Source of the DNA: Dehalococcoidia bacterium
GTDB lineage: Bacteria; Chloroflexota; Dehalococcoidia; GIF9; UBA5629
Assembly (NCBI GenBank): GCA_034436215.1
Contig: DAOTVU010000060.1
Span: 5,994 to 69,993, forward strand
Reading direction: 5' to 3'
Length of the DNA: 64,000 bases
The position numbers and the translations under genes were made by a program. Positions 1 to 63,545 of this stretch are shown here, one piece after another. The notes under the pieces were generated by a model. It was not told the DNA's origin. It searched no databases and saw only the letters and a list, made by a program, of their open reading frames with translations. Position 1 is the first letter of the stretch, and each line of letters begins with the position of its first letter.

Positions 1-334
1 CACCGATAAGTATCAATCCCGTGGCAAGGTCATGTAACCGGCCAAGCAGCAGTAGAGCCAGCAGCCAGCATAAAAAGGGTGCAAAAATGAAGTTAAGACC
101 GAGTCCCAAAATAAACGCTCGCCAATCACGAATTGCCATAGCAATGCCCCTTATAACGACAGTAAAGCCCATGGCCCCAATCATGATGACAATCAGCGGA
201 GTATTAAACTGCCTGATAAAAATACCCGGAGCAGGTGATATCAATCCTGTTATTATACCTATGCCAAGGGCACATAAAATTAAATAAGCGTAATTCTTAC
301 GTACAAATTCAGCATAAGCCTGCAACCATTTCAT
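1..334 (-). CDS. BART-superfamily (ACR3/BASS-like) transporter, 5' fragment (N-terminal ~111 aa; rest lies beyond window start)
   Basis: Minus-strand translation from ATG at 334: MKWLQAYAEFVRKNYAYLILCALGIGIITGLISPAPGIFIRQF... hydrophobic multi-TM. ATGA overlap with stop of the next gene. Absent from the ORF track because the ORF is open at the window edge. Confidence 0.45.
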   Translation of the reverse strand, partial: MKWLQAYAEFVRKNYAYLILCALGIGIITGLISPAPGIFIRQFNTPLIVIMIGAMGFTVVIRGIAMAIRDWRAFILGLGLNFIFAPFLCWLLALLLLGRLHDLATGLILIG

Positions 335-1083
335 TTCAACAAATCCCAGACCATTTTTATGGCAATTAAATACAGCACAATCCCTAAAGTCAGTTTAACC
401 TGAGATGGGTTCAGCTTTTTCCTCATTAAATAAGCTCCCAGAAGCGCACCACCTATAGAACCGACGACGCAGAGAGCTAACAGGTAGATATCTACATTCC
501 CCGTGCTTACATGACTTAGAAACCCGGCCAGTGAAGAAAATATCACTATAAAAGCCGTAGTAGCCACCGCTTTCCTGGTATCAATCCCCAGCAAGACCAG
601 TGCCGGCGCAATGATATTTCCTCCACCCACTCCCAGAAGACCGCCCAGAAAACCCGCCAGAGAACCAACGCCCGCACCGAAAGCAATTTCTTTATTAGGG
701 CTTGCTTCAATATGTCTGTCATGTGGTCTGTAAAACAACATCATTGTCGCTGCAAAAACAATAAAGCCTGTTAATATCCATTTAAGCAGACTCTCGGGCA
801 GGCGGCCGGCGGTAACAGCTCCCAGGGGAGACAGTACGGTAGCAGCGACCAGCACAGGTACAGCCGTTCTGAAAAGGATCAGCTTTGCCCGGCTAAAGCT
901 GATTGAGGCAAAAGCCATGGATACGGAATTCAGTAAAAGCGCAGTCGACATGGCAGTCAGCAACGGAATACCCATGGCGATAAAAACGGGGATAAGAATG
1001 AAGGCCGCTCCTACGCCGGATATCGTCAGCACCGTGGTAAAAGCAAAGGTTATCAGAGCCGCAATAAGATACAGTTGGTTCAT
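331..1083 (-). CDS. TauE/SafE family anion (sulfite) exporter, membrane protein
   Basis: 250 aa, ~8 TM, Gly-rich repeats (GLLGVGGG) typical of DUF81/TauE. Confidence 0.7.
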   Translation of the reverse strand: MNQLYLIAALITFAFTTVLTISGVGAAFILIPVFIAMGIPLLTAMSTALLLNSVSMAFASISFSRAKLILFRTAVPVLVAATVLSPLGAVTAGRLPESLLKWILTGFIVFAATMMLFYRPHDRHIEASPNKEIAFGAGVGSLAGFLGGLLGVGGGNIIAPALVLLGIDTRKAVATTAFIVIFSSLAGFLSHVSTGNVDIYLLALCVVGSIGGALLGAYLMRKKLNPSQVKLTLGIVLYLIAIKMVWDLLK

Positions 1084-1169
1084 TTAATCAGTACTCCCGT
1101 ATCATCTCCCGCTTTAGATACAAGATACAAGCTTTAAACTTTTACAAAGCAGTACATGGGCCATTCGAT

Positions 1170-1817
1170 TCAACTGTAAATCGCCTCTACCCATATCAGG
1201 TTATTAGCACTGACGACTTCCTTTAATTGTTCTACCATCGGACGTATGTCCTCCATCTGTGTGGATGTAATGTAAAAGCTCATATATCCGGGAGTCTTTT
1301 CCATAAGGCCTTTGATGGTGGGAATATCAAGCTTCAATTCAACTATATCGAACGGTTTATCCTTAATCAAATCCTCTAATTTAAGTAAAAAGCGCTGCTC
1401 TCCGAACACGCCAGAGATACGTATCTGTGCCCGCGTGGCCCTTGATGTGATTTTTTCTTCTGCTATTTTACGATCCTCAGCTACCTCAGATTTAGTGCGT
1501 TTAGCCGCCGCCTCTTTATGCACCTCCTTGAAAATCTTGTACTCCCGTTCTATTTTCCAGACAGTATCCCTCGAAGGAAAGGCAATGGCCTGAGTAGGAC
1601 AGACCATGGCACAGGTAGTGCAACCTACCATGCAGTTATAAGGACGCTCTACAGTTGCTTTATGCCTGTTATCAGGATTAATCTCAAAAACTTCTCGGCC
1701 GCAGGTTACATAGCATAATTCACACCCGATGCATTTCTCAGCATCGATTGTCGGAAACCATGGGATATTCTTCCTGGGCACACCGTGCCATAATGTCTGG
1801 CTTAAATCCTTAGCCAT
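1170..1817 (-). CDS. 2x[4Fe-4S] ferredoxin-domain protein with C-terminal NIL-like domain
   Basis: Two CxxCxxCxxxCP motifs (CIGCELCYVTCGREV; CMVGCTTCAMVCP). C-terminal ~110 aa extension. Confidence 0.7.
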   Translation of the reverse strand: MAKDLSQTLWHGVPRKNIPWFPTIDAEKCIGCELCYVTCGREVFEINPDNRHKATVERPYNCMVGCTTCAMVCPTQAIAFPSRDTVWKIEREYKIFKEVHKEAAAKRTKSEVAEDRKIAEEKITSRATRAQIRISGVFGEQRFLLKLEDLIKDKPFDIVELKLDIPTIKGLMEKTPGYMSFYITSTQMEDIRPMVEQLKEVVSANNLIWVEAIYS

Positions 1818-1926
1818 TTTATACCTCCTTATAACTCGGGTATGAAACCCATACCTGTTTTTTTCAATTTACCGGTTAATAAATCCCGGAATAATGAATA
1901 TACCCAAAATCTACATAATGAATTTT

Positions 1927-2964
1927 TCATTTTAATTTTCTTATCTTCCTCAGCATCAATGAAACGGGATGCCGCTTCTTTCTTTTTTCTAACTCATTTT
2001 CGACAAATTCTTGCTCTTCTTTCCTGATAAATCTGTAGAATAAACTCAACATCGGCATTTGAACGATAAAACAAAAAATCACAGCCAGAACGATGGGGCC
2101 GGAAAAAGTTGAAAGTGCCAGGGCGATGCCAATGGAGAGGTTTTTGGAAGTGGTACCATAAACAATGGGCATCTGATTGTCGTAGGAATTAATAAACAGG
2201 CCGGAAAAAAAGAGCGTGACCAGGAACGTAATCAGATAGTAACTTAATGAAAGCAGTAATCCCCAAATGATTAACTGGGGCTGGCTGATAATCGCTCCGA
2301 CTTTCAGGGAGACGGAGATAAAAACGACGAGCAGGGCACACATGCTGGAAATCGTGGATAAGGAAGGTTTCCATGATTTAATCTGTTTTGAGGAATATTT
2401 TTTCTTTAATAATAGCTGGGTAATAAAACCGGCAATTAAAGGCAGAAATATATAAAGCAGGAGATTTTGAATTAACAGCCATTGAGAAAACTTAACGGAG
2501 TTTGGAAGAAGCAAGGCCAGAGTTAAAGGTATGGTTAAAAGAGCTAAAATAAAAGTCGCAGTCTGTAAAATCATCGCTAATTCAATATTGGCATCCAGGA
2601 GTCCCGTCCAGGAGACGATCATTCCACCGGGTGGCATTGTAGCTGCCAGGATTAAGCCGCTCTTCAAATAATCGTATTTTTCTGGAAAAGCAAAATTTAT
2701 CAAATAAGCAACCAGCGGCGCCAAAACTAAAATCGCTAATATCCCCCAAACAAGTTCCCTCCTATATTTACGAATATCGACCAGTTCTTTAAAGTCTATG
2801 GCAATAACCATTACAAAAATCATTAAAAACAGAACGGGCACAATAAGAACCTGCAATAAAGAAGCTATATGAGGGAACAGCCAGCCGAAAAGAAAACCAA
2901 CTAATATCGAAGTTAAAACCAGTGAAAATAAATTCTTCCTAAAAAATTGATTGATTTTTTCCAT
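1927..2964 (-). CDS. BART-superfamily transporter (bile acid:Na+ symporter / ACR3-like fold)
   Basis: 345 aa, ~10 TM, two-repeat architecture. Lacks the conserved Cys of genuine ACR3 arsenite carriers, so substrate is left open. Confidence 0.55.
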   Translation of the reverse strand: MEKINQFFRKNLFSLVLTSILVGFLFGWLFPHIASLLQVLIVPVLFLMIFVMVIAIDFKELVDIRKYRRELVWGILAILVLAPLVAYLINFAFPEKYDYLKSGLILAATMPPGGMIVSWTGLLDANIELAMILQTATFILALLTIPLTLALLLPNSVKFSQWLLIQNLLLYIFLPLIAGFITQLLLKKKYSSKQIKSWKPSLSTISSMCALLVVFISVSLKVGAIISQPQLIIWGLLLSLSYYLITFLVTLFFSGLFINSYDNQMPIVYGTTSKNLSIGIALALSTFSGPIVLAVIFCFIVQMPMLSLFYRFIRKEEQEFVENELEKRKKRHPVSLMLRKIRKLK

Positions 2965-3014
2965 TTATACGTTGTCTCCCATGGGAGATAATAAGATTAT
3001 CCTAAATGGCACTC

Positions 3015-3452
3015 TCACTCTTTCAGGCTTTTCAAGATTAATTCCTTAGCCTTCCTCACATCGTCAGGATCTATATATTCCATCAGATCTTTTATTCCTT
3101 CACCTATATCTTCGTGAAGCGCTTTTTTCTTCATGCCGATATCTTTTACCAGCACAATACTTTTAGTCGGTTTCATGCCGGACTGTTCCACCGTCTTCCT
3201 CGCGCACTCAAACAGGCAGCCATCCACAGTGATGATTTTCTTGGCCGCCCTTGTCTTGCCGAGCACCGGCTTTACTCCCAGCGGCAGTGCTCCCAGACAG
3301 CCGATTGCCACCTTCTCCAGCCCTAACTCTTTGACGGCATCCAGACAGGCCAGCGCACTGGTAATACCGGTATTCGACAGACCACCAAAACAGGAAAAAA
3401 TGATGTTCTCATGTGTCTTCATTCCTTCTTCCCAGTGTTTTTCTTCTGCCAT
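3015..3452 (-). CDS. DGC-domain (putative Zn-binding) protein
   Basis: 145 aa with motif VDGCLFECARK and several conserved Cys. Confidence 0.5.
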   Translation of the reverse strand: MAEEKHWEEGMKTHENIIFSCFGGLSNTGITSALACLDAVKELGLEKVAIGCLGALPLGVKPVLGKTRAAKKIITVDGCLFECARKTVEQSGMKPTKSIVLVKDIGMKKKALHEDIGEGIKDLMEYIDPDDVRKAKELILKSLKE

Positions 3453-3525
3453 CTTAAAAATAAACTCCTTAAAAAATATATTATTCGTTATATGATGGTT
3501 ATATTACGTATTTCGTCCGTTTAGT

Positions 3526-5253
3526 TCACTTCAAATATGCATTGAGTATCTTCTCCAGCTCTGCTGCGCTATTGAATTGCAGGTTATTATTTAAAACTAT
3601 CCCCGACTTATCCAGCAGATAATATGTCGGGACAAACAAAACGTTATATGCGGCCCCGACTTTATTTTCGGCATCGTATAATACCGGAAATCTAAAATTC
3701 TCAGCGGTTACATAATTTTTGATGGCTGTTTCTCTGCCCGCTCCATGAATTGTAACTATGGCTACTTTATCCGTCGGGATCTTATCATACACTTCCTGAA
3801 CCATCGGCATTTTCATCTGGCAGGTGGGGCAGGATATGTTCCAGAAGGCCAACAGCGTAATTTTCCCGCGGAGCTGGTTTGAGTTAAAAGGCTCGCCATT
3901 AATGGTTTTAAGTTGAAACGAGGGTGCACGCTGGGTAACTGCAGTTCCGGCGGCCAGTGAAAAACTGCCCGTATATTCCGCCATCAGCCTGTGCCCGTAG
4001 GGGTCTATGGATTTAATCCTGAACTTATATATACCGTTTTCCGCCAGGCCGGTAAGCGAAACGGCATGATTTGTTGAAGCTTCAATTCCGGTGATAGACT
4101 GGAATTTATTTTCTCCTTCCAGCCAGTAATCCACCTCTGCCGTGGTAGGACGGTCAGTTTCCCATACGATAGTAACGGCATCGCCCGTCATATCCTTAAT
4201 GGCAGGATTTATGATAACAGGCGGCTTTTCCAGCGTGGTAAACGAATACTGCGGAGATATGCCTTTACCGCCTTTTCTGTCACTGAACAGTATCTGAAAA
4301 TAATATGTGGTGGCCTCATTAAGATTATCAATCACGATGCTGTGCACGGTGCGGGTTGTGTTCTCCGACCAGGTACCCGCTATTGCCCCATTTCTGTCAT
4401 ATACCAGTATATCTACGATTTCGGGATTTGCTGTGGTAAACGTAATACGGGCATTGCTGGAACCGATATCTACAACCGTAACGTTATCGGTTACAGCAAA
4501 GCCGTTCGTCTGCCCGCTGTTTTTTGCTTCTTTGAAGTTGATCGTGCCGGTCACTGTCAGGACTGCGAGAACAATACCCGCAATCCCGATCAAATAGCCC
4601 AGTGAGGCCCACAGGTTGTTACGATATAAGCGCGATAACTTCCATAAAGTGGTCGACCACAGGGAATTTACCCTGCTCTTTACCGGGCATGTCAGCGGTC
4701 GGCCGGCACTTAATCGAAGCGTTACGAAATCGATTAATTGTATGGCAGGCCACCGGCTGGCCAGAAACCTTCCCGGTTGCATGAATATAACGATTAAAGC
4801 CAGCAGCATCAGGACTATGTCAATGATCAGCGATTGCAGAGGTGTAAGGTGGCCGAATATCATCTCCCAGATACCGAAACAACCTGCACAGGTAGCATAA
4901 CTCCCGGCAATAATCGCCCATACATTGGTAGCGGCGAAAATCGCTGAGAGCGGTATACAGAGCAGTGCGGACAGACGCGGTACAAAACCCAGCAACAGTA
5001 GAATGCCCAGCAACAGTTCAGCAATGGGGAAGATATACGGCACAACTATTTTAACAATGAAATGCAGCAACCACGGCGACAGAAGAAATTCCGGCAACAC
5101 GGCATAAATAAAATTCATTACCTGAGACGATGTCTCCAATTCTCCGAGCAGTTTACCGGTCCCTGAGGCAAGAAAAGTCAGCCCGATCAACAGGCCTGCT
5201 ATCAGGCTGGAATATTCACGCACTGGTAACAATTTTGTGCTGTCAAGACGCAT
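3526..5253 (-). CDS. Fusion protein: MauE/DoxX-like membrane domain + FN3/Ig-like domain + TlpA-like thioredoxin (CPTC)
   Basis: N-terminal ~230 aa multi-TM, central beta-rich domains, C-terminal AFWNISCPTCQMKMPMV thioredoxin motif. Confidence 0.65.
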   Translation of the reverse strand: MRLDSTKLLPVREYSSLIAGLLIGLTFLASGTGKLLGELETSSQVMNFIYAVLPEFLLSPWLLHFIVKIVVPYIFPIAELLLGILLLLGFVPRLSALLCIPLSAIFAATNVWAIIAGSYATCAGCFGIWEMIFGHLTPLQSLIIDIVLMLLALIVIFMQPGRFLASRWPAIQLIDFVTLRLSAGRPLTCPVKSRVNSLWSTTLWKLSRLYRNNLWASLGYLIGIAGIVLAVLTVTGTINFKEAKNSGQTNGFAVTDNVTVVDIGSSNARITFTTANPEIVDILVYDRNGAIAGTWSENTTRTVHSIVIDNLNEATTYYFQILFSDRKGGKGISPQYSFTTLEKPPVIINPAIKDMTGDAVTIVWETDRPTTAEVDYWLEGENKFQSITGIEASTNHAVSLTGLAENGIYKFRIKSIDPYGHRLMAEYTGSFSLAAGTAVTQRAPSFQLKTINGEPFNSNQLRGKITLLAFWNISCPTCQMKMPMVQEVYDKIPTDKVAIVTIHGAGRETAIKNYVTAENFRFPVLYDAENKVGAAYNVLFVPTYYLLDKSGIVLNNNLQFNSAAELEKILNAYLK

Positions 5254-5271
5254 ATTATTCCTCCCTGCACA

Positions 5272-5964
5272 TCAATATCGGGGGCAACAAAATACATCGA
5301 AATCGACCTGACCTTTCGCTTCATTTCGCATTCCATCTTCAGCCATAACTGTAATCAGATAATGGCCGACATTCGGCGGGGCGGTGAAAAAAGCCGTATC
5401 GCATGAACCCGAATCCAGTGCTGGTGACCCGGGGTCGGCCTTTAAAAATCCACCGCTCTTAGACCATCGATATTTTATTTCTCCGCCTGCCGCATTATCT
5501 ACGATGCAGTGTATGCGTGTTCTGGTGCCGACTTTCACCGTACGTTTGATCAGTACATTTTCGCCTGATGACATGGAAAGCTTTAAATCGACATTGGGGG
5601 TTGTTGTGCCATCCGCATTGGTCAGCACCCGGATGCCAACCGATTTCGTGGCCACTCCGCCTTTTCCATCGCTGACCCTGACTTCTACAGTATAATCTCC
5701 CATCGTATCCGGCGTTATCCAGACTATGTTCGATCCACCGCCGTGAAACTGGCCACTATCCGCCGCCCACTCATATTTCAAAGGGTCGCCATCGGGATCC
5801 TCTGAGATACAGATCAGCTCAAGATCCTGTCGGGCCATGGCGTCGTGAGCGCAGACTAACTCCTTTATTACCGGAGCCGCATTGTGCGGTGCGGAAATTT
5901 TCGGCGGTTCTGCACAGCCGGCACATAGGGCAATCACAAAAGCAGCAACCATCAGCCGTCTCAT
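5272..5964 (-). CDS. PKD-domain lipoprotein ending in vicinal Cys pair (…DVFCCPRY)
   Basis: Signal/lipobox LCAGCA. PKD-like motif DPDGDPLKYEWAADSG. Paralog of 7105..7812. Confidence 0.55.
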   Translation of the reverse strand: MRRLMVAAFVIALCAGCAEPPKISAPHNAAPVIKELVCAHDAMARQDLELICISEDPDGDPLKYEWAADSGQFHGGGSNIVWITPDTMGDYTVEVRVSDGKGGVATKSVGIRVLTNADGTTTPNVDLKLSMSSGENVLIKRTVKVGTRTRIHCIVDNAAGGEIKYRWSKSGGFLKADPGSPALDSGSCDTAFFTAPPNVGHYLITVMAEDGMRNEAKGQVDFDVFCCPRY

Positions 5965-6590
5965 CGCTGAGATATCCCCACCTTTTCCAGTATCTTCAAT
6001 ATACTGTCCTTGTCTATATATCCGAGATTGCGTGCGACCTCCTTACCATCCGCAGTAAAAAATATCTGAGTCGGTATTGCCCTGATACCATAACGGGTAA
6101 CCAGCTTCTCCTGTTCGGGGTCATATACTTCCACAATTACCACATTCAACCGGTCTTTATATTCAACTGCCAGTTCTTCAAGAATGGGCTTCATAGCCTT
6201 GCAGGGGATGCACGTGCGCCAGCCGAAGTCGGCCAGCGTGGGTCTGCCGTTTCCCAGAACGCTATCCAGAGGTATCCTGGTTATATCAGCTCCGTCGCCA
6301 CTTTTATTTTGTCCGGACGTATCGACGCCGGTCTGTGTCCTGTCCATCGAGTTGCTACCGCCATCATTTTTATAAGGTATGTCGGCAACCGGCGTAGCAG
6401 CCGTCGATGTATTTGAACAGCCCAGCACGGCTGCAATCAGAATAAACAATGAAAATGTCAATATCGCTTTAACCCGAATAAATCCCCGCAATGCGCCTCC
6501 GGCAGACCTCATATTTATAGAAACTTTGCTTCCATCTTCACACATTTTTAACTTCTCCGGTTTAGCCGATATTTTCCAGCCGTTTTCCAC
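5961..6590 (-). CDS. Membrane-anchored thioredoxin-family protein (CIPC active site)
   Basis: N-terminal TM, Ser/Thr/Gly linker, WRTCIPCKAMKP...AIPTQIFF thioredoxin fold signature. Confidence 0.7.
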   Translation of the reverse strand: MENGWKISAKPEKLKMCEDGSKVSINMRSAGGALRGFIRVKAILTFSLFILIAAVLGCSNTSTAATPVADIPYKNDGGSNSMDRTQTGVDTSGQNKSGDGADITRIPLDSVLGNGRPTLADFGWRTCIPCKAMKPILEELAVEYKDRLNVVIVEVYDPEQEKLVTRYGIRAIPTQIFFTADGKEVARNLGYIDKDSILKILEKVGISQR

Positions 6591-6622
6591 GGCCCATTTT
6601 CGCCCTCAATTCCGTCCATATT

Positions 6623-7108
6623 TCAATAATCGCCCTCCAATGCTCTGGTGATAACCTGCTTCAAAGCCTGTTTGAACTTTGCCTTATCGGTAAAGTACTC
6701 CCAAACCTCATCAGCGAAAACGATACGCTGGGACTGACCATGAACTATGGTCATACCCAGACAAAATGGGGCAGGATCATATTTTTTGACAATGGCGGCA
6801 TTCTGAGCCACATCAGAGGCTACAAACAGGAACTTAAGTTTGCCCGATTCGATCTCATTTTTAAACTCCTGCGTCACGGTTTCTCTGATATTTTCACCCG
6901 CCTCGGCCAGACATTCACAGGGAGGCGGATTACTCTTATAAAAATAGACGACCTCGACGCTATCCGGAGGTCCGGAAGGCTTAGCAGTCCCCGAAGTACT
7001 GGCCACCGGCCTGCCGCATGACGTTAGTATTACCAAAACAACGATGGAAACAATTAATATAAATTTAGGATTAGTGGTATATTTCATAGGTCTCCTTTTT
7101 AAACTCAA
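6623..7108 (-). CDS. Lipoprotein with CxC motif (paralog of 8625..9221), possible thioredoxin-like/ArsD-like fold
   Basis: LTSCG lipobox. VEVVYFYKSNPPPCEC...SGKLKF shared with 8625..9221 (VDVIYFHPNQRCVTCLC...SGKLTY). Confidence 0.45.
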   Translation of the reverse strand: MSLKRRPMKYTTNPKFILIVSIVVLVILTSCGRPVASTSGTAKPSGPPDSVEVVYFYKSNPPPCECLAEAGENIRETVTQEFKNEIESGKLKFLFVASDVAQNAAIVKKYDPAPFCLGMTIVHGQSQRIVFADEVWEYFTDKAKFKQALKQVITRALEGDY

Positions 7109-7812
7109 TTACCGCAACAGAAAACATGTATGTTAACCTGCCCTCTGGCCTGCTTTCCGCTGCCATCTTTTACCACGACATCAACTGTATAATCACCGAT
7201 GCTACCGGGTGCTATCCATCCGATAGTATCTGCCCTTCCTTCCTGTAAATCTCTGGCTTTTATCTTCCCGCCGGTGGACGACCACGTATATGTCAGCCGG
7301 TCACCACCACCGTTTTCCACCAGACAGACTATATTGGTTGTTGTCCAGATACGGGCGCGCTGATTACCGAGAACAACCGGCTGGTCATTACCCAGTTTCA
7401 GTTTTAATTCTATAGTCGGCGTTGCAGTACCGTCAGCATTGGTAACCACTCTTATTTCAATAGTGCGATTAGCAACACCGCCTTTCCCATCCATCACCCT
7501 GACAGACACGGGATAGGTGCCCATTTTCCCAGGCGGAACCCACACAATACTTGCCCCATCACCCCGGATATTGCCTGCATCTGCTGTCCATGTATACATA
7601 AGATTATCGCCATCCGGATCACTGGCCACGCACTGTATTTCTACGTCCGAATTGGAGAATACATCTTTAGGATAAATCACGTCTTCAATTACAGGTGGCC
7701 TATTGGCCTGCATGGACACATGGCCTGTTCCCGAACACGAAAGCAACGACCCAAACAGTGTGGCTATCGTTATCAGCAGAAAAACCGTATATATTACTCC
7801 TGTTTGCCTCAA
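7105..7812 (-). CDS. PKD-domain lipoprotein ending in vicinal Cys pair (…HVFCCGN)
   Basis: DPDGDNLMYTWTADAG...MDGKGGVANRTIEIRVVTNADGTATP, near-identical blocks to 5272..5964. ATGA overlap with upstream gene. Confidence 0.55.
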   Translation of the reverse strand: MRQTGVIYTVFLLITIATLFGSLLSCSGTGHVSMQANRPPVIEDVIYPKDVFSNSDVEIQCVASDPDGDNLMYTWTADAGNIRGDGASIVWVPPGKMGTYPVSVRVMDGKGGVANRTIEIRVVTNADGTATPTIELKLKLGNDQPVVLGNQRARIWTTTNIVCLVENGGGDRLTYTWSSTGGKIKARDLQEGRADTIGWIAPGSIGDYTVDVVVKDGSGKQARGQVNIHVFCCGN

Positions 7813-7835
7813 GATATAATCATTCCTCCATCAAA

Positions 7836-8555
7836 TTAACTCTGGTTCAAGCCACTGAGAATCAGGGGAACCATGTAATAAATGCCGACGCCAATAAACA
7901 CCAGGGCAATGACAATACGCAGAATTTTTTCACTTCGTGTAACAGCATCAATCCATTTCGATAAACTGGCCACGCCAAGAGATATAAGCATTCCAAATAA
8001 TAACACAGGCAACCCGGTCCCGATAGCGAAAAAGGCCGGCAGAATCACGCCCTCGGTTGTTCTCAGAGCCAGTGGAATCAAAACGGCGAAAAACAGAACC
8101 GCGCTGTACGGACAGAAGGCCAGGGCAAAAATCGCACCCAGGGGCAATCCACCGATCATACCCAGGTCGGCAACTTTTCCTCCCGCCGATGAGAGGACAT
8201 TCCCACTGCTCCCGAAGGAAATCCGGTCTATAAAAAGCATTAACAGCCCGACGACAACTAGAAACGGGCCCAGTGCCTTCTCACCCACCTCCTGCACAAA
8301 TATCGAAATACCGGGAATGCTGAGGCCGAGGTAGATAATCAGCGCCCCCAGAACCGTATAGGTTAGCATGCGCCCTGCGGTATAAAGCGAAGCCGTCAGC
8401 ACTGCATACTTGCGATCGGTCAATTTGCGCCCCACATAGGCCAGGGCCGCAATGTTGGTGGCCATTGTACACGGGCCGATGGTCGCCATCAGCCCCAGGA
8501 AAAAGGCCGATATGATGGGGATATTGTTACCCGAGGTAAGCGCAGATAAATCCAT
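7836..8555 (-). CDS. CcdA/DsbD-family thiol:disulfide interchange membrane protein
   Basis: 239 aa, 6-8 TM, conserved Cys in TM1 (IGPCTMATN) typical of the DsbD transmembrane family. Confidence 0.6.
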   Translation of the reverse strand: MDLSALTSGNNIPIISAFFLGLMATIGPCTMATNIAALAYVGRKLTDRKYAVLTASLYTAGRMLTYTVLGALIIYLGLSIPGISIFVQEVGEKALGPFLVVVGLLMLFIDRISFGSSGNVLSSAGGKVADLGMIGGLPLGAIFALAFCPYSAVLFFAVLIPLALRTTEGVILPAFFAIGTGLPVLLFGMLISLGVASLSKWIDAVTRSEKILRIVIALVFIGVGIYYMVPLILSGLNQS

Positions 8556-8624
8556 TACATCTCCTATTTAATAATATTAATAATACATATTGCTTGAGCT
8601 TTATGCGCAACGTTCATTTTCTCA

Positions 8625-9221
8625 TCACTGTATTTTAAGCAGGCTCTGGTCAATAGCATCCTTAACCTTGAGCTGAAAGCCGCGAGGGTTTGTTTCACAT
8701 TTCCAGTTCCATATACCCTGAATATCCTTTATATTATCGACGCCCCCGATTATGGTGTTCACAAACAGCTGTGAACCCACGGCACGATATTTTCTGACGA
8801 TGTCAGCATTTTCCTGTTTCTGGATATTCAGAACCCTGTAGGTCAATTTCCCGCTGGCCATGGCATCCTGATAATATTTTTCTATTACCGTGTTGATATT
8901 TTGTTCAAAACACAAACAGGTCACACATCGCTGATTAGGGTGAAAATAAATGACATCCACACGGTTTATTTTATCCGAATTGGCCGGCGGTTGATGTTTA
9001 ACAGAATCTGCTGCCGCTGCGGCATCCTGATCGGATGAACTCTGACCTGCCGCTTGATTTCCAGCAGGGGGCTGGTCAGAATTCTTCTCTCCCGCCTGCG
9101 GTTGGCCTGCTGCCGGCACCTGAGGTTGTACACCGGATGATGCCGGGCTACAGCTCACCGCAACCGGCACAAAAATACAACTCACGATTATCAATAATAT
9201 CCCGATAAGCGTCGGCTTCAA
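8625..9221 (-). CDS. Lipoprotein with CxxCxC motif and Q/A/P-rich linker (paralog of 6623..7108)
   Basis: VAVSCS lipobox, low-complexity linker, conserved C-terminal domain shared with 6623..7108. Confidence 0.45.
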   Translation of the reverse strand: MKPTLIGILLIIVSCIFVPVAVSCSPASSGVQPQVPAAGQPQAGEKNSDQPPAGNQAAGQSSSDQDAAAAADSVKHQPPANSDKINRVDVIYFHPNQRCVTCLCFEQNINTVIEKYYQDAMASGKLTYRVLNIQKQENADIVRKYRAVGSQLFVNTIIGGVDNIKDIQGIWNWKCETNPRGFQLKVKDAIDQSLLKIQ

Positions 9222-9332
9222 AATATTCGCTCTCTCCCCATAGCAAATCGAGAATTCATTTCATGTGGATCATCCACGACAGGTTTAAATATAAACTGTA
9301 AATTTTCGCGGATAACCCACAAATTTATCCAT

Positions 9333-9599
9333 TTACCGGCTTTTGGCTTCTTCCTCATAAGCCATGGCGTTCATGATTAACTGTTCAACCTCGGCTCTGG
9401 TCGGAACCTTGCCGCTGAGTACCACCTTATCGTTAATAACCAAACCGGGGGTCATAAGTATAGGGTATTGCATAATCTTCCGCATATCCCTGACCTCCTC
9501 GACGGTAATATCAAGCTGCAAGGTGGATACCACTTCCTTAACAATTTTTTCCAGTGCCACACATTTGGCACATCCGGGACCGAGAACTTTGATATGCAT
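9333..9599 (-). CDS. Thioredoxin-like 'redox-active disulfide protein 2'
   Basis: 88 aa, MHIKVLGPGCAKC N-terminal CxxC, classic small thioredoxin-fold family. Confidence 0.75.
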   Translation of the reverse strand: MHIKVLGPGCAKCVALEKIVKEVVSTLQLDITVEEVRDMRKIMQYPILMTPGLVINDKVVLSGKVPTRAEVEQLIMNAMAYEEEAKSR

Positions 9600-9616
9600 G
9601 CATTTACCTCCGATTG

Positions 9617-10657
9617 CTATTTAGCGATAAATCCGAATATATATCCCGTAATAGTCGCCATGATACAAACCAGTGCTACATAAACCAGGGTCTTTTTCCA
9701 TCCCATTATTTTGCCCAGTGCCAGCATACTGGGCAAGGATAGCGCCGGACCCGCCAGCAGAAGGGCCAGCGCCGGCCCCTTACCCATTCCCATATCCAGA
9801 AAGGCCTTAACTATGGGAACCTCGGTGAGTGTGGCAAAATACATCAATGCACCGAAAATCGATGCCACGAAATTACCGAGTATGGTGTTACCTCCCACAA
9901 TGGATGCCACCACCTGCTGGGGCACAATTGCCTTTAATATGCCGGCGATAAACACACCTATCAGCAGCCACGGCACAATCAAAAGGAAAAACCGCCATGT
10001 TTCCTTCATCCACAGTTTGAACTCATCCAGGGTAAACCAGCGCCACAGGATAATGACCAGACCTGCAAGCAGAATACCCAGAACAAGCCACAGCTTGGAA
10101 GAGGCGGTGATAAGGATGCCCACCAGCAAGGCAAAATATATGATCTCCTGCCACCAGGGTTTTTCCGGGTCGGCAGCGGCCAGAGCCTCGAAACGGCCAT
10201 CATCGATTCTTTTCTTTTCTCCTCTGGCAAAAATATACGCCATAATTAGCCCGATGATTACCGAAAAAGAAACCGCTCCGATTACACGCGCCAGGCCGAT
10301 ATCCCAGCCCAGAAGTCTGGCCGAATATACAATGGCCAGCACATTAATAGCAGGCCCTGAATACAGAAACGCTATGGCGGGCCCCAATCCTGCTCCGGCC
10401 ATATATATACCGCTGAACAAGGGCAACACCGTGCAGGAACAAACAGCCAGGATTGTCCCTGAGACCGCACCAACTCCGTAGGCTAAGAATTTATTGGCAC
10501 CGGGTCCGAAATATTTTAGAACCGATGCCTGTGAGACGAACACCGATATGGCTCCCGCAATAAACAATGCCGGGACCAGACAGGTGAGTACATGAAGCGA
10601 TAGATAATCCAGAAGCGTATCCCAGCCCGATTTAAGCAACATTAAAATAAAATCCAT
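9617..10657 (-). CDS. Two-repeat permease (DUF318 family) commonly paired with ArsR and redox-active disulfide protein 2
   Basis: 346 aa, ~10 TM, internal duplication, SGTILAVCSCTVLPLF motif. Confidence 0.7.
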   Translation of the reverse strand: MDFILMLLKSGWDTLLDYLSLHVLTCLVPALFIAGAISVFVSQASVLKYFGPGANKFLAYGVGAVSGTILAVCSCTVLPLFSGIYMAGAGLGPAIAFLYSGPAINVLAIVYSARLLGWDIGLARVIGAVSFSVIIGLIMAYIFARGEKKRIDDGRFEALAAADPEKPWWQEIIYFALLVGILITASSKLWLVLGILLAGLVIILWRWFTLDEFKLWMKETWRFFLLIVPWLLIGVFIAGILKAIVPQQVVASIVGGNTILGNFVASIFGALMYFATLTEVPIVKAFLDMGMGKGPALALLLAGPALSLPSMLALGKIMGWKKTLVYVALVCIMATITGYIFGFIAK

Positions 10658-10700
10658 TTCATCTACCTTTTTGCTAATTTTCCGTAATCATGCACCGGTT

Positions 10701-11084
10701 TCAGGAAGAATGGACACATTCCGGATAAACACGGCATACAGTTGAGAGTTTCTCCAGATCGGACTTCGACAGCTCATTGACCATCAGTCGTTTCCTGACG
10801 GACTTTAAAAGATCGACGGTTGCTTCATCCATATTATCCCAATCGATCAGGTAAAATGAGAACAGTCCGCGATGTCTGACCTTTAATATCCCTGCATTGT
10901 GCATAATTCCGAGATGGTGAGAGACCCTGGGTTGCGATATCCCCAGCACCTGGATAATCTCACACACACAGCACTCACGCTCAAACAGCATATTGAGCAT
11001 CCTCAATCTCGTCTCATCGGCAAGCGCCTTCAATAATTTGACCGTGTCCTGCATATTTTTACTCCCGTAGAATCTATATAACAA
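10701..11084 (-). CDS. ArsR/SmtB-family metalloregulator (HTH)
   Basis: LADETRLRMLNMLFERECCVCEI...ISQPRVSHHL helix-turn-helix with metal-site Cys pair. Confidence 0.8.
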   Translation of the reverse strand: MLYRFYGSKNMQDTVKLLKALADETRLRMLNMLFERECCVCEIIQVLGISQPRVSHHLGIMHNAGILKVRHRGLFSFYLIDWDNMDEATVDLLKSVRKRLMVNELSKSDLEKLSTVCRVYPECVHSS

Positions 11085-11103
11085 TATTATTATATAGTTA
11101 TAT
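11076..11103. promoter_or_regulatory. Inverted repeat ATATAAC-N14-GTTATAT immediately upstream of arsR start (candidate ArsR operator)
   Basis: Read directly from sequence. AT-rich, overlaps the expected promoter of the minus-strand operon. Confidence 0.3.
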
Positions 11104-11448
11104 TTAGTTATAATGATATCGCTCGGATTTTTAGATTGTCAAATGGCAGCTATTTTGATAAATATACGGCCTACTATAGAAATGATGATTAAATGGCAGA
11201 TAAAATTATATGCAGACCAACACCGAAATGAAATCCGCAAAAAAGAACGGTTGCTGGATTTTCAATTTTTATCTGCCCCACATATTTGAATTGCATGGTT
11301 GCGCATTATTGCAATTATCTATGAGCTTTGATATCATTATATTTAGGTATTTAATATCCGTTCAATTTCAAATTAAGGGGGTAACTGCGATAGACGGGAT
11401 TAAATTAGAGAGAAATTCGCAACTGGAAAATATTTAAGGAGGTTTTAT

Positions 11449-11904
11449 ATGTTTGCCAAGGTACTCTACCCAACCGATTTTTCCGATGTATCCACCAAAG
11501 CTCTGGAGTATGTTAAAAAACTGAAGGAAGCCGGAACTACCGATGTTGTTGTCGCCCACATAATCGATAAAAGGGAAACTGTTTGCGTGGGACCATGTGC
11601 AGCGTGGGGAAATATGACAGTGAGCGAAGCTGAAGCAAACTTGAGAAAGACACTGGAAACAGACGCACAAAAAAAATTGCGCTCCATCGAGGCCAAATTA
11701 AGAAAATCCGGCTTCGAGGTCAAGATACGATTGGAAACGGGCAGCCCCGTACAGGAGATTTTAAAGATCGAAGAGGAGGAGAAGGTTTCTGTCATCGTCA
11801 TTGGTTCTCACGGCAAGAGCAATATCAAAGAAGTTTTTCTTGGCTCAGTTTCAGAGAATGTTATCAGACACTGTAAGAAGCCCGTTCTGGTCGTAAAGAG
11901 ATAG
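11449..11904 (+). CDS. Universal stress protein UspA
   Basis: 151 aa. VIGSHGKSNIKEVFLGSVSENVIRHCKKPVLVV C-terminal ATP-binding motif. RBS AAGGAGG upstream. Confidence 0.8.
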   Translation: MFAKVLYPTDFSDVSTKALEYVKKLKEAGTTDVVVAHIIDKRETVCVGPCAAWGNMTVSEAEANLRKTLETDAQKKLRSIEAKLRKSGFEVKIRLETGSPVQEILKIEEEEKVSVIVIGSHGKSNIKEVFLGSVSENVIRHCKKPVLVVKR

Positions 11905-11912
11905 GCATTAAA

Positions 11913-12260
11913 ATGCATAAGCTGGTGAAAATATCCAAAGCCCTCTCCGATGAGACGAGAATCAGGATGCTTAAGTTATTACTGGATGAGGACATCTGCG
12001 CCTGTGAAATGAGAAAAATATTCCCTCTTTCACTCCCCCAGCTATCGAGAAATCTGAAAATGCTGATGGAGGCGGGCTTTTTAAAATGCTGGCGTGATGG
12101 AAAATGTTTGGTTTACATAGCGGACAGAGACAGCGCTGATGACTATTGCCGTACACTGATGGATTTACTATCAGCCTCATATAATAATTCTGAAACGGTA
12201 TTAAAAGACCGTATGAAATTAAAACAGGTAAAAGCAAACAAAGTAAGGGTATGTTGTTAA
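11913..12260 (+). CDS. ArsR-family transcriptional regulator
   Basis: LSDETRIRMLKLLLDEDICACEM...SLPQLSRNL HTH. Confidence 0.75.
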   Translation: MHKLVKISKALSDETRIRMLKLLLDEDICACEMRKIFPLSLPQLSRNLKMLMEAGFLKCWRDGKCLVYIADRDSADDYCRTLMDLLSASYNNSETVLKDRMKLKQVKANKVRVCC

Positions 12261-12354
12261 TAACCGATATATTTTTAAATTTATACTTTCATGGTTGTGC
12301 ATAGCTACAATTATATAATTATAAAGACATATCTTCCCGAGGGAGGGAGTATTA

Positions 12355-13221
12355 ATGCCGCAGGTAGCTATAGTCACAGATAGTGCGTCATGTGTACCCG
12401 ATGAGTTAATTCAGCAATATGCCATCGAAGTGGCCCCCATGGTATTGATCTCCGAAGGTAAAGCCTATCGGGACGGAATAGATATCACATCACAGGAATT
12501 TTATGAGAGGCTTTCCCGCAATAATAACAGATGGACAACTTCCGCTCCCTCACCGGGTACTTATCTTGAACTTTTCAGAAAACTGGCCGGTAAAGTCAGT
12601 AGTATCTTGGTTATAACAACGTCATTAAAATTCAGCCATTCATTTGAGTCAGCCGTGATCGGCGTAGAAGCAGCCGGGGAAGAGTTAAGCAATCTGAAAA
12701 TAGAGGTCCTCGATTCCGGAACCGCTGCGGGTGGACTGGGACTCGTGGTAATAGCTGCAGCCAGAGCGGCGGAACAGGGAAAACCGTTGAGCGATGTGAT
12801 CGCTTCGGCACGGAGTACAATGTCTAAAGTCAATTTAATTGCATTTTTAGATACGCTTTACTACCTGGCCAGGGGCGGAAGGGTACCCCAAATAGCTGCG
12901 CTGGCAACTTCACTGCTCGATATCAAACCCGTTATAGAGCTACTTCCATTATCGCAGGGTATCCGTTCCTTACAGAAAGTCAGGACGAGACTTAATGCTG
13001 TTAATAAGCTGGAAAAGATCGTAAAAGAAAGAGTAAAAAGAAGTCCCGTTCACTGTATCGTTATGCATTCCAATGTTATCGACGAAGCCGAGGAGTTGAA
13101 AAAACACCTCGCCGGCGAACTCGACTGTGTCGAAATCTACGTTGCAGATTTTACGCCGGTAATGGGGGTGCACACGGGGCCCGGCCTTCTGGGGGTTGCT
13201 TTCTATGTGGAAAGCGGGTGA
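12355..13221 (+). CDS. DegV-family fatty-acid-binding protein (FakB-like)
   Basis: 288 aa, IVTDSASCVP N-terminus, full DegV fold length. Confidence 0.8.
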   Translation: MPQVAIVTDSASCVPDELIQQYAIEVAPMVLISEGKAYRDGIDITSQEFYERLSRNNNRWTTSAPSPGTYLELFRKLAGKVSSILVITTSLKFSHSFESAVIGVEAAGEELSNLKIEVLDSGTAAGGLGLVVIAAARAAEQGKPLSDVIASARSTMSKVNLIAFLDTLYYLARGGRVPQIAALATSLLDIKPVIELLPLSQGIRSLQKVRTRLNAVNKLEKIVKERVKRSPVHCIVMHSNVIDEAEELKKHLAGELDCVEIYVADFTPVMGVHTGPGLLGVAFYVESG

Positions 13222-13292
13222 AATTTAGAGATCCATATGAATATGCTGAATTTGCCATCACCATTTTATCTATCAAAATACAGTAAGTTTAA

Positions 13293-14090
13293 ATGGAGGT
13301 TATCATGAGTGCACTTGCATACGCTATACTATTTGTCGTCGGCATACTGGCCGGTGGTCTTGGCGGTTTGATCGGCATCGGAGGCTGCGTACTGATGATG
13401 CCAACCGTCCGCTTCGGTTTTAATTTTTCACCCGCACTGGCGGTGGGGACAACCTTGACGGCAGTGGTGTTCACCGCCGCATCCGGTGCCTATCAGCACT
13501 GGAAGCTGGGCAACGTCGACTGGCAATCAGTAAAATACATAGCTCCGGCCGGCATCCTCGGGGTAATAGTTGGCTCGGTTGTTTTTTACTATATTTCATC
13601 ATACGGTAAGGTTATCGATCTGATTGTTGGACTGGCCTTTATTTGGGCAGCTGCCAGAATGGTTTATGAAGGCTTCTTCCAGCGCAAAATGCCGGAGATC
13701 GCCGGTGACAAAATCGTGGGATCAAATGCGACCAAAGCCGGCATAGGCGGCGGAGTTGGCATCCTGACCGGCATTGTTGGACTGGGTGGTGGCTATGCAC
13801 TGGTGCCGAGCTTTATTTATATAACCAAATCTCCATTAAGGATAGCCGTAGGTTCATCACTGGCATCTTTCGTCTGGTTTGCTCTGGTGGGAGCTGCAAT
13901 TAAATATGTGGAAGGCTTTACCGACTTGGTGGCCGCACTGGTTATGGGCGTGGGCGCAGCCAGCGGAGCCATTCTGGGGGCAAGGCTTATGTCCAGGGTC
14001 AAGCCGGCAACACTGAAAGCCATTTTCGGCATTATCTTCCTTTATGTTTCACTTAAGTACATCCTGCTCTTCTGGAACATTCAGATATAA
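13293..14090 (+). CDS. TauE/SafE family anion exporter (second copy)
   Basis: 265 aa, multi-TM, GGLGGLIGIGG motifs. Confidence 0.7.
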   Translation: MEVIMSALAYAILFVVGILAGGLGGLIGIGGCVLMMPTVRFGFNFSPALAVGTTLTAVVFTAASGAYQHWKLGNVDWQSVKYIAPAGILGVIVGSVVFYYISSYGKVIDLIVGLAFIWAAARMVYEGFFQRKMPEIAGDKIVGSNATKAGIGGGVGILTGIVGLGGGYALVPSFIYITKSPLRIAVGSSLASFVWFALVGAAIKYVEGFTDLVAALVMGVGAASGAILGARLMSRVKPATLKAIFGIIFLYVSLKYILLFWNIQI

Positions 14091-14245
14091 TCGGGCTTAG
14101 TAGATAAAAGGTGAATAGATGGTGCACGGTGATTTTTCATTGCAATATGGGCAATAACATGACAACAATCGATAACAGCCTTTGAACAATATTTTGTGGT
14201 TGCCGGATGCCATGAATATGATTTTGATGGCCGTAACCGGACACC

Positions 14246-14878
14246 GTGATACAGGGTGCAATTGTGGAAATATGTTTAACCATAATACTGGCCATCGGTG
14301 CTTTCTGGCTGGGAGCATGTCCTTTTGCCGTCTGGATTGGCAGATGGAAGCTTCACAAGGACATCAGAGCATACGGCGACCACAATCCCGGAGCAGCTAA
14401 CGTTTTCAGAGCCGGCAGCATAAAATGGGGGGTTGTTGCCGGATTAATCGAGGTCGCAAAGGGCATGCCATTCGTAATGCTGGCACATCTATATTTCCTT
14501 CTGAGCGAACCGCAAATTTATTTGATCGCCCTGTGCCCGGTGGCTGGGCATGCCTTCTCACCATTCCTGAAATTTAAAGGGGGCAAAGCGACGGCAGCCA
14601 CATTTGGCGTTCTTTTGGCTATTCCCCCAAAGGAATTCATCCTGATTTTAATTATCATCCTCATTATCGGTTTTTTATTACTCGAAGGCGATGGCTGGAG
14701 AATATTTTTAGCTGTAGCCACGTGTTTAATTTACGCCATAACTGCAGGAAAGGGTATCTGGCTAACCCTATTTCTGGCTAGCATAACAGTGATTATAGCC
14801 TTTAAAAATCGGGGTGACCTAAAATCACTGCCATCTCGAAAGAAAAAAATCTATATTGGTTTTGGCCAGGAAAAATAA
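14246..14878 (+). CDS. plsY: Glycerol-3-phosphate acyltransferase PlsY (acyl-phosphate dependent)
   Basis: 210 aa membrane protein. HNPGAANVFRAGS (GSGNxGATN-like) and AGHAFSPFLKFKGGKATAATFG motifs. Confidence 0.7.
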   Translation: MIQGAIVEICLTIILAIGAFWLGACPFAVWIGRWKLHKDIRAYGDHNPGAANVFRAGSIKWGVVAGLIEVAKGMPFVMLAHLYFLLSEPQIYLIALCPVAGHAFSPFLKFKGGKATAATFGVLLAIPPKEFILILIIILIIGFLLLEGDGWRIFLAVATCLIYAITAGKGIWLTLFLASITVIIAFKNRGDLKSLPSRKKKIYIGFGQEK

Positions 14879-14900
14879 GATAGGATAAATGAGGGGATAA

Positions 14901-16028: not shown

Positions 16029-16074
16029 TATCACCACGATTTGATAAATCAGTTTTCAAGGTCGCTTATCACTG

Positions 16075-16935: not shown

Positions 16936-17017
16936 CAGTTATTTTCCCTTACACAGACTCGCTCCTAAATATTAATAATAAAAGTTTAAATCGATCTTAA
17001 AAGGCGTAGAAATCGAT

Positions 17018-17422
17018 ATGATCGTTTTCATTTGCATTTTCAGTATATTAGTATATACTTATATTGTGATCGATTCTGAGCAGAAAACAACCGAACTGCA
17101 AGCAGCATTGTTCGGCACGTTAGCCGATCCTACCCGTCTTAAATTGATAAAATTGCTGTGCAGGCAGCAACCCCATGCCCTTTGTGTCAATGCCCTCGCA
17201 GGTATTTTGGGCGTCAGCCAGTCTGCTGTTTCCCAGCACTTAAGGTTGCTTAAATCCATCGGTCTGGTAAGAGGTGAAAGGCGCGGCTATCACATCCATT
17301 ATTACGTTAACGCGGACGTGATAAAAGGTTATCGGGATCTTGTATTGAACGTATTTACAATCGAAGAAACTCTCCCGGGACAGCCATGCCAGAACAATTG
17401 TTTAAAAAGGGAGGATGCTTAA
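17018..17422 (+). CDS. ArsR-family transcriptional regulator
   Basis: LADPTRLKLIKLLCRQQPHALCVNALAGILGVSQSAVSQHLRLL. Confidence 0.75.
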   Translation: MIVFICIFSILVYTYIVIDSEQKTTELQAALFGTLADPTRLKLIKLLCRQQPHALCVNALAGILGVSQSAVSQHLRLLKSIGLVRGERRGYHIHYYVNADVIKGYRDLVLNVFTIEETLPGQPCQNNCLKREDA

Positions 17423-17425
17423 AAT

Positions 17426-48376: not shown

Positions 48377-48403
48377 TTTCTTTCACCTTTGTGTCTCTGC
48401 CGG

Positions 48404-49558: not shown

Positions 49559-49587
49559 TCTATCCGCTCCTTTTCATATTTATCATT

Positions 49588-51482: not shown

Positions 51483-51509
51483 TTAATCTACCTTCCAGCA
51501 GACGGAATC

Positions 51510-55461: not shown

Positions 55462-55509
55462 TACGCAGTTACATCCTCCTGTAATCCATTACGTTTATAA
55501 TTTTTACAT

Positions 55510-58578: not shown

Positions 58579-58589
58579 GGCACCTTCAC

Positions 58590-63511: not shown

Positions 63512-63545
63512 CCGTGCCTTCCCCAAACTTCAATCAGCCCTGCCC

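Follow-up and report, generated by a model that had tools for sequence, protein, structure and literature searches.

Vicinal cysteine pairs at a C-terminus are known from MerA (..CCAG) and from the high-molecular-weight thioredoxin reductases (TrxR; ..GCUG, or ..SCCS in Drosophila), where they hand over a thiophilic metal or electrons. Adjacent cysteines also form arsenical-binding sites, namely C12-C13 of ArsD, C95-C96-C102 of AfArsR, C101-C102 of SpArsR and C96-C97 of ArsI; MerP and MerT constitute a thiol relay, and the alpha domain of DsbD (DsbD-alpha) is an immunoglobulin (Ig)-fold domain with a redox-active pair of cysteines. Here we describe two paralogous lipoproteins, A and B, encoded in 64,000 nucleotides of a Dehalococcoidia bacterium (assembly GCA_034436215.1, contig DAOTVU010000060.1, positions 5,994 to 69,993 of the forward strand; this whole stretch is referred to as the window, and coordinates are given within it). 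Each carries two PKD domains and ends in a vicinal Cys-Cys (CC), and we refer to their family as PKD-CC.

Two further systems bear on the genes that surround A and B. MauE proteins from two phyla replace DsbB in E. coli; a periplasmic CXC motif between transmembrane helices (TM) 3 and 4 is essential and is followed by conserved F and G residues, a K in TM1 and an E in TM2 are likewise conserved, 8.2% of MauE entries carry a fused thioredoxin-fold domain, and the protein is expected to work via a partner protein (bioRxiv 10.64898/2026.03.05.709764). Chloroflexota, PKD domains and vicinal cysteines go unmentioned in the same preprint. In ArsEFG of Shewanella putrefaciens, ArsG is described as an efflux permease and ArsEF as nitroreductases for aromatic arsenicals (Chen, Zhang and Rosen 2019, cited in PMC9144182).

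Protein B (235 amino acids (aa); 7105-7812, minus strand) consists of a signal peptide with the lipobox LLSC, two PKD/Ig domains and the C-terminus VFCCGN, and protein A (230 aa; 5272-5964, minus strand) repeats this architecture with the C-terminus VFCCPRY; the open reading frames (ORFs) close with HVFCCGN and DVFCCPRY, respectively, each directly followed by the stop codon. The vicinal, invariant cysteines are Cys232-Cys233 in B (codons at 7114-7119, minus strand) and Cys226-Cys227 in A (codons at 5284-5289, minus strand). Both proteins belong to the PKD and bacterial Ig-like families (PF00801, PF18911, PF17963), as judged by Pfam scores and by all-beta models: the two scored 37.3 and 46.0 bits against PKD (gathering threshold 23.5) and 35.7 and 50.5 bits against Big_9 (cutoff 23.6). 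A hydrophobic helix (residues 4-26) is followed by LLSC in B and by LCAGC in A, which by motif and alignment marks both as lipoproteins; the lipobox Cys is invariant among 42-43 aligned homologs. We defined the PKD-CC family by a length of ~225-250 aa, a lipobox, two PKD domains and a Cys-Cys right after the last strand, at most 9 residues from the end, and both A and B show all of these features. They are related paralogs with two Ig domains, predicted to be lipid-anchored and extracytoplasmic.

When compared by BLASTP, A and B were 40% identical over 225 aa (E 1e-63), with an alignment that extended through VFCC. No DNA-level repeat was found between the two genes, and this together with the modest identity indicates that the paralogs are old; recent gene conversion was ruled out, as no DNA repeat is common to both. 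Only 2-3 residues follow the Cys-Cys in A and B, and no C-terminal sorting signal (LPXTG, PEP-CTERM or GlyGly-CTERM) is present. Readings of the tail as a sorting signal, a prenylation-like signal or a site of cofactor attachment were set aside, since nothing comes after the motif and the neighbourhood encodes no matching enzyme.

Protein searches returned 100 proteins with B as the query and 102 with A, nearly all of 225-250 aa and from Dehalococcoidia or Chloroflexota metagenome-assembled genomes. A Cys-Cys lay within the last 9 residues in 168/169 full-length homologs, the tails falling into subfamilies ending CCGN (78), CCPRN (55), CCGDS (21) and CCPRY (6); such strict, subfamily-specific tails fit recognition by specific partners. 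In three alignments (A1, A2 and A6) the pair was invariant at a mean column identity of 49-52%, and the invariant columns were essentially the lipobox Cys, PKD core residues and the two terminal Cys; no feature of the family is better conserved than the pair. The codons themselves varied among 70 distinct genes (TGC-TGC in 37, TGT-TGC in 23, TGC-TGT in 10), and this synonymous variation indicates that selection acts on the protein. All family genes that reach the tail read Cys-Cys rather than selenocysteine at this position, although in-frame TGA was not searched for in the DNA; one ORF (L017) stops 12-13 residues before the position of the pair, and in-frame TGA was not searched for there either.

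The family has no model of its own in Pfam or NCBIfam, database names for its members are merely 'hypothetical' or 'PKD domain-containing protein', and no publication on PKD lipoproteins ending in Cys-Cys came up in the literature searches. A profile search against 1.84 billion representatives gave 54,903 matches, dominated by giant multi-PKD repeat proteins and thus uninformative on the spread of the family.

AlphaFold2 models of A and B, built from 42-sequence alignments, had a predicted local distance difference test (pLDDT) score of 89 for B and 87 for A, and showed in each case an N-terminal helix joined by a short linker to two all-beta domains. The last beta-strand ends at Phe231 in B and at Phe225 in A, and the Cys-Cys comes directly after it, with confidence falling over the final residues; predicted template modelling (pTM) scores of 0.55 and 0.52 leave the mutual orientation of the two domains uncertain. 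Foldseek against the Protein Data Bank (PDB) returned nothing beyond generic proteins with Ig domains in tandem (for example adhesins, proteins of S-layers and surface lipoproteins that bind glycans or B12), and the matches from Foldseek and phmmer together were confined to generic tandem Ig/PKD domains, such as those of ColH and KIAA0319L; neither search found a solved relative of PKD-CC in the PDB.

The original prediction, made from the letters of this DNA, had described two ~230-aa PKD lipoproteins, both ending in VFCC near the C-terminus, and the ORFs, Pfam scores, lipobox and tails bear this out; its premise that orthologs keep the terminal pair likewise holds across the homologs counted above. 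Two of its phrases went too far. The 'near-identical' PKD blocks are short stretches close to identity (for example DGKGGVA and IRV(L/V)TNADGT) within proteins of much lower overall identity, and the 'flexible terminus' amounts in the models to a tail of two or three residues on a pair that abuts the last beta-strand.

Gene neighbourhoods were compared across 79 loci from GTDB species genomes, 80 from metagenomes and several obtained via exact-protein look-ups, annotated by BLAST against the window proteins. Among 65 distinct CC-tailed PKD proteins, the directly upstream gene was MauE in 19, another PKD-CC gene in 16, ArsG/DsbD_2 in 9, a thioredoxin lipoprotein in 4, and ArsE and ArsP in 1 each; a thiol-redox gene lay at most 2.5 kb away for 44/65. 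Three settings recurred. The first is an arsenic-type operon with the order ArsR, ArsP_1, ArsE, ArsF, ArsG, 1-3 PKD-CC genes and often a thioredoxin lipoprotein, found in at least 10 Dehalococcoidia species (e.g. L001, L172 and L173), in which the CCG[N/DS] or CCGKELTGD types follow ArsG and the CCPR[N/Y] types follow the thioredoxin lipoprotein; sister islands additionally hold ArsD, ArsA, ArsC and Acr3. One locus (L146, 2402-6422) has an alternative order, ArsR, ArsP_1, PKD-CC (tail VTCCDK), ArsE, ArsF, ArsG, which places the Cys-Cys protein directly behind the permease. At another (L008, 7451-7615), two PKD-CC genes are separated by a 54-aa DsbD_2 fragment, which suggests that an ArsG-PKD-CC module was duplicated and then decayed.

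The second setting is a pair of genes in which a diverged PKD-CC subfamily, 25-36% identical to A and B and ending VHCCSG, VKCCG[VN], V[AL]CCGGG[FY] or VLCCGRG, sits directly behind a stand-alone MauE gene (~181-205 aa); this was so for 19/19 distinct proteins (L032, L037, L087-L125). At the four of these loci with flanks annotated or read (L032, L037, L087 and L090), the genes on either side of the pair bear no relation to it and are read from the other strand, and no thioredoxin gene was seen close by. The third setting is a tandem pair of PKD-CC genes, with tails CCH[EP] and CCGN or CCRDP and CCTTE, in a conserved housekeeping locus with a CoA ligase, rubrerythrin, an amino-acid permease, Nramp, MgtE and an IcmF-like mutase. 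An island copy and a tandem pair occur together on one chromosome (OY970123.1; L010 and L021).

In the window, the arsenic-type operon contains the complete ArsEFG cassette, in that ArsE, ArsF and ArsG are contiguous at 7836-9599 and each exceeds its NCBIfam cutoff. ArsE (9333-9599, minus strand; 97.8 bits, cutoff 62) is a small thioredoxin-like protein of the MTH895/ArsE family with the motif CAKC; the ArsF-family lipoprotein (8625-9221, minus strand; 87 bits, cutoff 60) has a long low-complexity linker and an invariant CxxCxC; and ArsG (7836-8555, minus strand; 247.5 bits, cutoff 200), also assigned to the CcdA-like Pfam family DsbD_2, is a membrane protein directly upstream of B. Between B and A lie an ArsF-like lipoprotein with an invariant CxC (6623-7108, minus strand; 49 bits, below the cutoff of 60) and a thioredoxin lipoprotein with the motif CIPC (5961-6590, minus strand), the stop codon of which is overlapped by the start codon of A by 4 nt. 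The two ArsF-type lipoproteins differ in their cysteines, CxxCxC plus a distal Cys in the first and CxC in the second; neither has a Pfam family or a relative in the PDB. Directly downstream of A, a fusion gene (3526-5253, minus strand) encodes a MauE domain (CAGCFGIWE), a TM helix, two FN3 domains and a TlpA/MauD-like thioredoxin (CPTC).

Every one of these partners carries an invariant cysteine motif: the two transmembrane Cys of ArsG in 16/16 homologs, CxxCxC of ArsF in 9/9, CxC of the ArsF-like protein in 8/8, CxxC of the thioredoxin in 7/7, CxxC of ArsE in 11/11, and CxC in the ArsP_1 permease. The topology, judged from signal and lipobox sequences and from transmembrane helices read in the sequence, is predicted to place ArsE in the cytoplasm and ArsF, the ArsF-like protein, the thioredoxin lipoprotein, both PKD-CC proteins and the FN3-TlpA part of the fusion outside it. 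The MauE domain of the fusion scored 39.5 bits (Pfam cutoff 27), and it and the stand-alone genes upstream of PKD-CC share PF07291 (recorded for L087-L091), the Cys motif between TM3 and TM4 followed by F-G, and the K (TM1) and E (TM2) residues; in an alignment of MauE proteins (A4), C122, C125, F126, G127, K34 and E79 were invariant. The window domain has CAGC, a CxxC, whereas the published active site and the stand-alone MauE proteins beside PKD-CC have CxC.

The original prediction had also proposed thiol-disulfide exchange with the adjacent thioredoxins, or binding of soft metals or metalloids. Gene order kept in three diverged subfamilies favours the exchange, although the partners are not solely soluble thioredoxins; from the upstream-gene counts, in which MauE and ArsG/DsbD_2 outnumber thioredoxin lipoproteins, the strongest partners are the membrane oxidoreductases, MauE and CcdA-like. 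Metalloid binding has the arsenic island and chemical precedent on its side, yet it is not the general role of the family, because many core-genome members have no ars genes nearby.

We propose, with about even confidence and on the strength of gene context, that PKD-CC proteins are two-Ig stalks displaying a redox-active vicinal dithiol or disulfide that is serviced by membrane thiol relays. The two PKD/Ig domains would form the stalk and the invariant Cys-Cys after the last beta-strand its working end, switched between dithiol and disulfide (vicinal or intermolecular) by membrane thiol:disulfide oxidoreductases encoded next door. In the ArsR-controlled operon of the window, a reductive relay would run from ArsE to ArsG and on to ArsF, the ArsF-like protein and the thioredoxin lipoproteins, the MauE-FN3-FN3-TlpA fusion would supply an oxidative module, and the two PKD-CC paralogs would be extracytoplasmic clients of both. 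Because it belongs to DsbD_2 and its two transmembrane cysteines are invariant, ArsG is read here as a putative CcdA-like electron transporter. The long low-complexity linkers of ArsF and the thioredoxin lipoprotein, and the FN3 stalk of the TlpA fusion, would hold their active sites at a height like that of a Cys-Cys on two PKD domains, on a geometric argument.

Since the cluster lies inside an arsenic island, binding of trivalent arsenicals is the most likely specific role of the island copies; there the Cys-Cys is probably kept reduced for this purpose, a step we hold with lower confidence than the redox role itself. The reduced vicinal dithiol would bind trivalent, especially organic, two-coordinate arsenicals outside the membrane, so that PKD-CC might act as an arsenical trap or as the acceptor of what the ArsP and Acr3 exporters release. 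A two-sulfur site would prefer methyl or aromatic As(III), matching the substrates attributed to ArsP and to ArsEFG.

Several observations weigh against this proposal. Inorganic As(III) prefers three sulfurs, and a two-Cys site is a poor one for it; stoichiometric trapping is in any case a weak resistance mechanism. The tail beyond the Cys-Cys is short, unlike the long swinging arm of MerA or TrxR. The loci were collected by homology and their counts are not an unbiased sample; the MauE pairs occupy one syntenic position where flanks are known, and the 19 may represent one or a few evolutionary events rather than 19 independent ones. No redox (MauE, DsbD or thioredoxin) or ars genes lie within 10 kb of the tandem-pair locus; this clade is large, so adjacency to redox genes is not universal, and the lack of ars genes there indicates that arsenic was not the ancestral role. 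Finally, the published role of ArsG is that of an efflux permease (cited in PMC9144182), and an electron relay through ArsEFG is an inference.

A first alternative, possible in our view but rather unlikely, is a metalloid or soft-metal chaperone or trap, in which the dithiol would bind As(III), MAs(III), Sb(III), Hg or Cu and the DsbD_2 and thioredoxin proteins would merely keep it reduced, with no catalytic cycling. The ArsR-controlled island with its ArsP_1, Acr3 and ArsC genes, and ArsD and ArsA in sister islands, are what such a protein would be expected to keep company with; vicinal cysteines bind arsenicals in ArsD, AfArsR, SpArsR and ArsI, unrelated CARDB lipoproteins in the same islands have CC-x3-4-C tails, and VCC is likewise the end of an ArsR paralog in the window. 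Against this stand the MauE-linked and tandem-pair subfamilies, whose surroundings hold neither ars nor metal genes, and MauE itself, an oxidase that would destroy a metal-binding dithiol; moreover, the site offers two sulfur ligands only, with no third Cys near the tail in types A and B.

Association with the disulfide-forming MauE would instead be expected if the pair were structural, with MauE-made intermolecular disulfides joining paralogs into covalent hetero-oligomers or tying the stalk to an S-layer or envelope partner; the island copies would then be induced by arsenic to take the place of an envelope component sensitive to arsenite, and would bring along enzymes of their own for redox maintenance. 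We consider this unlikely. Two or three paralogs often co-occur with subfamily-specific tails (CCH[EP] with CCGN, CCRDP with CCTTE, CCGK.. with CCGN and CCPRN), the fold resembles adhesin and S-layer Ig stalks, and related PKD arrays bear CSxC..FG(C) tails, all of which agree with a crosslink. A crosslink nevertheless leaves unexplained why there are two adjacent invariant cysteines rather than one, and why PKD-CC is directly adjacent to the reductive ArsG/CcdA-like protein in nine cases.

PKD-CC might also be a carrier rather than a client, namely the mobile partner of MauE (as DsbA is for DsbB) or of ArsG/ArsF (as DsbD-alpha is within DsbD), passing disulfides or electrons to other substrates via a strained vicinal disulfide on a non-thioredoxin fold; we regard this as quite improbable. 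Small-ring CxC and CC disulfides are strongly oxidising, and DsbD-alpha provides an Ig-fold redox precedent. The window fusion, MauE-FN3-FN3-Trx (CxxC), parallels a MauE plus a lipoprotein with two Ig domains and a Cys-Cys, and the MauE-PKD-CC units at the four loci with known flanks have no thioredoxin-fold gene near them. DsbD-alpha excepted, however, no disulfide carrier outside the thioredoxin fold is known, and a dedicated substrate is a simpler explanation of this gene order. For its part, MauE is expected to act through a partner, which is in line with a carrier (bioRxiv 10.64898/2026.03.05.709764).

That the terminal pair arose by chance, or is neutral, in two genes that duplicated recently has practically no probability, for beyond the fact that A and B are paralogs nothing favours it, and it is excluded by invariance in ~170 homologs down to 25% identity together with synonymous codon changes, the two genes sharing no DNA-level repeat besides. 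Given the membrane enzymes for making or breaking disulfides that are usually encoded just upstream in this family, the pair is very probably a functional thiol/disulfide site.

The proposed stalk with a serviced vicinal dithiol is embedded in a larger island. An ArsR-family repressor (10701-11084, minus strand) with an ECCVCE motif in its DNA-binding domain heads the co-directional cluster and is followed by the ArsP_1 permease (PF03773; 9617-10657, minus strand) with a conserved CSC motif; from 11084 to the start of the window the minus-strand genes run on with short gaps. Beyond the MauE fusion come a DGC-domain protein that recurs in these islands (3015-3452), an SBF/Acr3-type transporter (1927-2964), a Fer4 protein (1170-1817) and TauE (331-1083), all on the minus strand, and on the source contig the island extends past the window start with SBF, an LMWP-type ArsC, a second SBF and a methyltransferase. 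The region's best match to a sigma-70-like promoter (TTGACA-18-TATCAT, 11/12; 11113-11142, minus strand), one to consensus only, lies just upstream of arsR; total counts in the promoter and terminator scan were at chance level, and just the position of this best site is suggestive.

On the plus strand, a second ArsR-family protein (11913-12260) has an ICACE motif and the C-terminus KVRVCC, and is the sole other window protein with a C-terminal Cys-Cys; we take its VCC end to resemble the C-terminal metalloid sites of some ArsR proteins. The G+C content is lower in the arsenic-island half of the window (0.42-0.49 at 1-20000) than at the far end (0.50-0.54 at 48000-64000), with a block of 0.55 at 24-28 kb, and the island may thus have been acquired.

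Cysteine-rich C-terminal tails are not confined to PKD-CC. In sister islands, a CARDB-type two-domain lipoprotein of ~245 aa (L001, 15871-16611; L172, 10001-10720; L173, 10001-10738) in every case follows another DsbD_2 gene and precedes ArsD or ArsD-ArsA; most of its 68 homologs end SCCGGGxCP, SSCCPGG...CP or SACCP, and many share contigs with PKD-CC genes. A protein of ~190 aa without a Pfam match, encoded upstream of the CARDB-linked DsbD_2 gene in L001 (14522-15121), ends CVPGSGCCGQ. The ending shared by the CARDB lipoproteins and this protein makes an extracytoplasmic C-terminal Cys-Cys beside DsbD_2 a recurring design of these islands. At metagenome loci L103-L171, PKD lipoprotein genes (220-380 aa) stand in tandem arrays of 2-4, and their products have tails such as CSxC(E/T)FG(C), FYVPSCACGF and VVTCPACILG, that is, CxxC or CxC instead of CC. 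For most of these arrays no redox gene lies within 4 kb; the exceptions are L104, with ArsF-ArsG upstream of the array, and L140, where DsbD_2-MauE precedes it.

It was not until 2026 that MauE came to be seen as a widespread, DsbB-like source of disulfides, and PKD-CC is a testable candidate for its natural partner or substrate: the two stand side by side, and are predicted to be co-transcribed, across diverged Dehalococcoidia, and the sole invariant feature of PKD-CC to be stressed besides the lipid anchor is the terminal Cys-Cys. Uncultured Dehalococcoidia abound in peat and in lake and aquifer sediments with arsenic mobilisation, and the island copies suggest that they handle arsenicals partly outside the membrane via a thiol relay, and that ArsEFG may be an electron relay of the CcdA type. 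A wider reading, speculative and in our estimate distinctly doubtful, would make PKD-CC a class of Ig-fold thiol-redox carriers, the native MauE partner in Chloroflexota in place of DsbA or MauD, which after duplication became the outward end of the ArsE-ArsG-ArsF relay of the island, capturing or processing trivalent arsenicals; were this true, ArsEFG would have to be understood as a relay of the DsbD type split into separate proteins, and not as nitroreductase and permease. A thiol relay, if confirmed, would be a new element for envelope redox biology or arsenic resistance; a purely structural crosslink would yield a modest family annotation.

Beyond the PKD/Ig superfamily and the lipoproteins, A and B belong to none of the redox, arsenic or metal-binding families compared here. 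Neither matched the DsbD N-terminal (alpha) domain in Pfam or NCBIfam at E <= 0.01, and their cysteines are C-terminal and vicinal; no thioredoxin-family match places them with the oxidoreductases DsbA, MauD or TlpA, and their models are all-beta Ig; no PF06953 match links them to the ArsD metallochaperones, no HMA match to MerP and its relatives, from which their Ig-like fold also sets them apart, and Pfam found no HTH match in PKD-CC proteins. They are extracytoplasmic and have no FAD or NAD domain, which limits their likeness to the MerA/TrxR-type arm to the motif.

That likeness consists of a Cys-Cys 2-3 residues from the C-terminus followed by small residues; MerA and TrxR, by contrast, are cytoplasmic flavoenzymes with a long mobile arm, whereas PKD-CC has no flavin/NAD domain and its pair abuts a beta-strand. 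With the sites of ArsD, ArsR and ArsI it shares adjacent cysteines in proteins of ars operons, and the CC-x3-4-C of the CARDB relatives is like that of AfArsR, although those proteins are cytoplasmic and of unrelated folds.

The passing of the ArsE, ArsF and ArsG cutoffs by 9333-9599, 8625-9221 and 7836-8555 in an ArsR-headed island likens the window to S. putrefaciens, where the published cassette comprises three genes without a PKD-CC protein (cited in PMC9144182); beyond ArsEFG, the window adds the Cys-Cys lipoproteins (1-3 across such islands), extra thioredoxins and the MauE fusion. With the MauE/MauD pathway, the stand-alone MauE proteins and the window domain share the C-x(1,2)-C-F-G, K and E of active MauE, and the window domain is fused to a thioredoxin fold, as are ~8% of MauE proteins; the published partner, however, has a thioredoxin fold (DsbA or MauD), whereas here it would be a two-Ig lipoprotein with a bare C-terminal Cys-Cys. 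DsbD/CcdA relays (E. coli DsbD; CcdA-Etrx-MsrAB2 of S. pneumoniae, PMC3914529) present the same chain of parts as the window, namely a cytoplasmic thioredoxin-like protein, a two-Cys DsbD/CcdA membrane protein, surface thioredoxin-fold lipoproteins and a client, except that the putative client in the window is neither an Msr nor a cytochrome c apoprotein, nor is it a disulfide isomerase. In function, PKD-CC thus appears to come closest to the proteins that DsbD/CcdA relays and the MauE pathway use as clients or shuttles.

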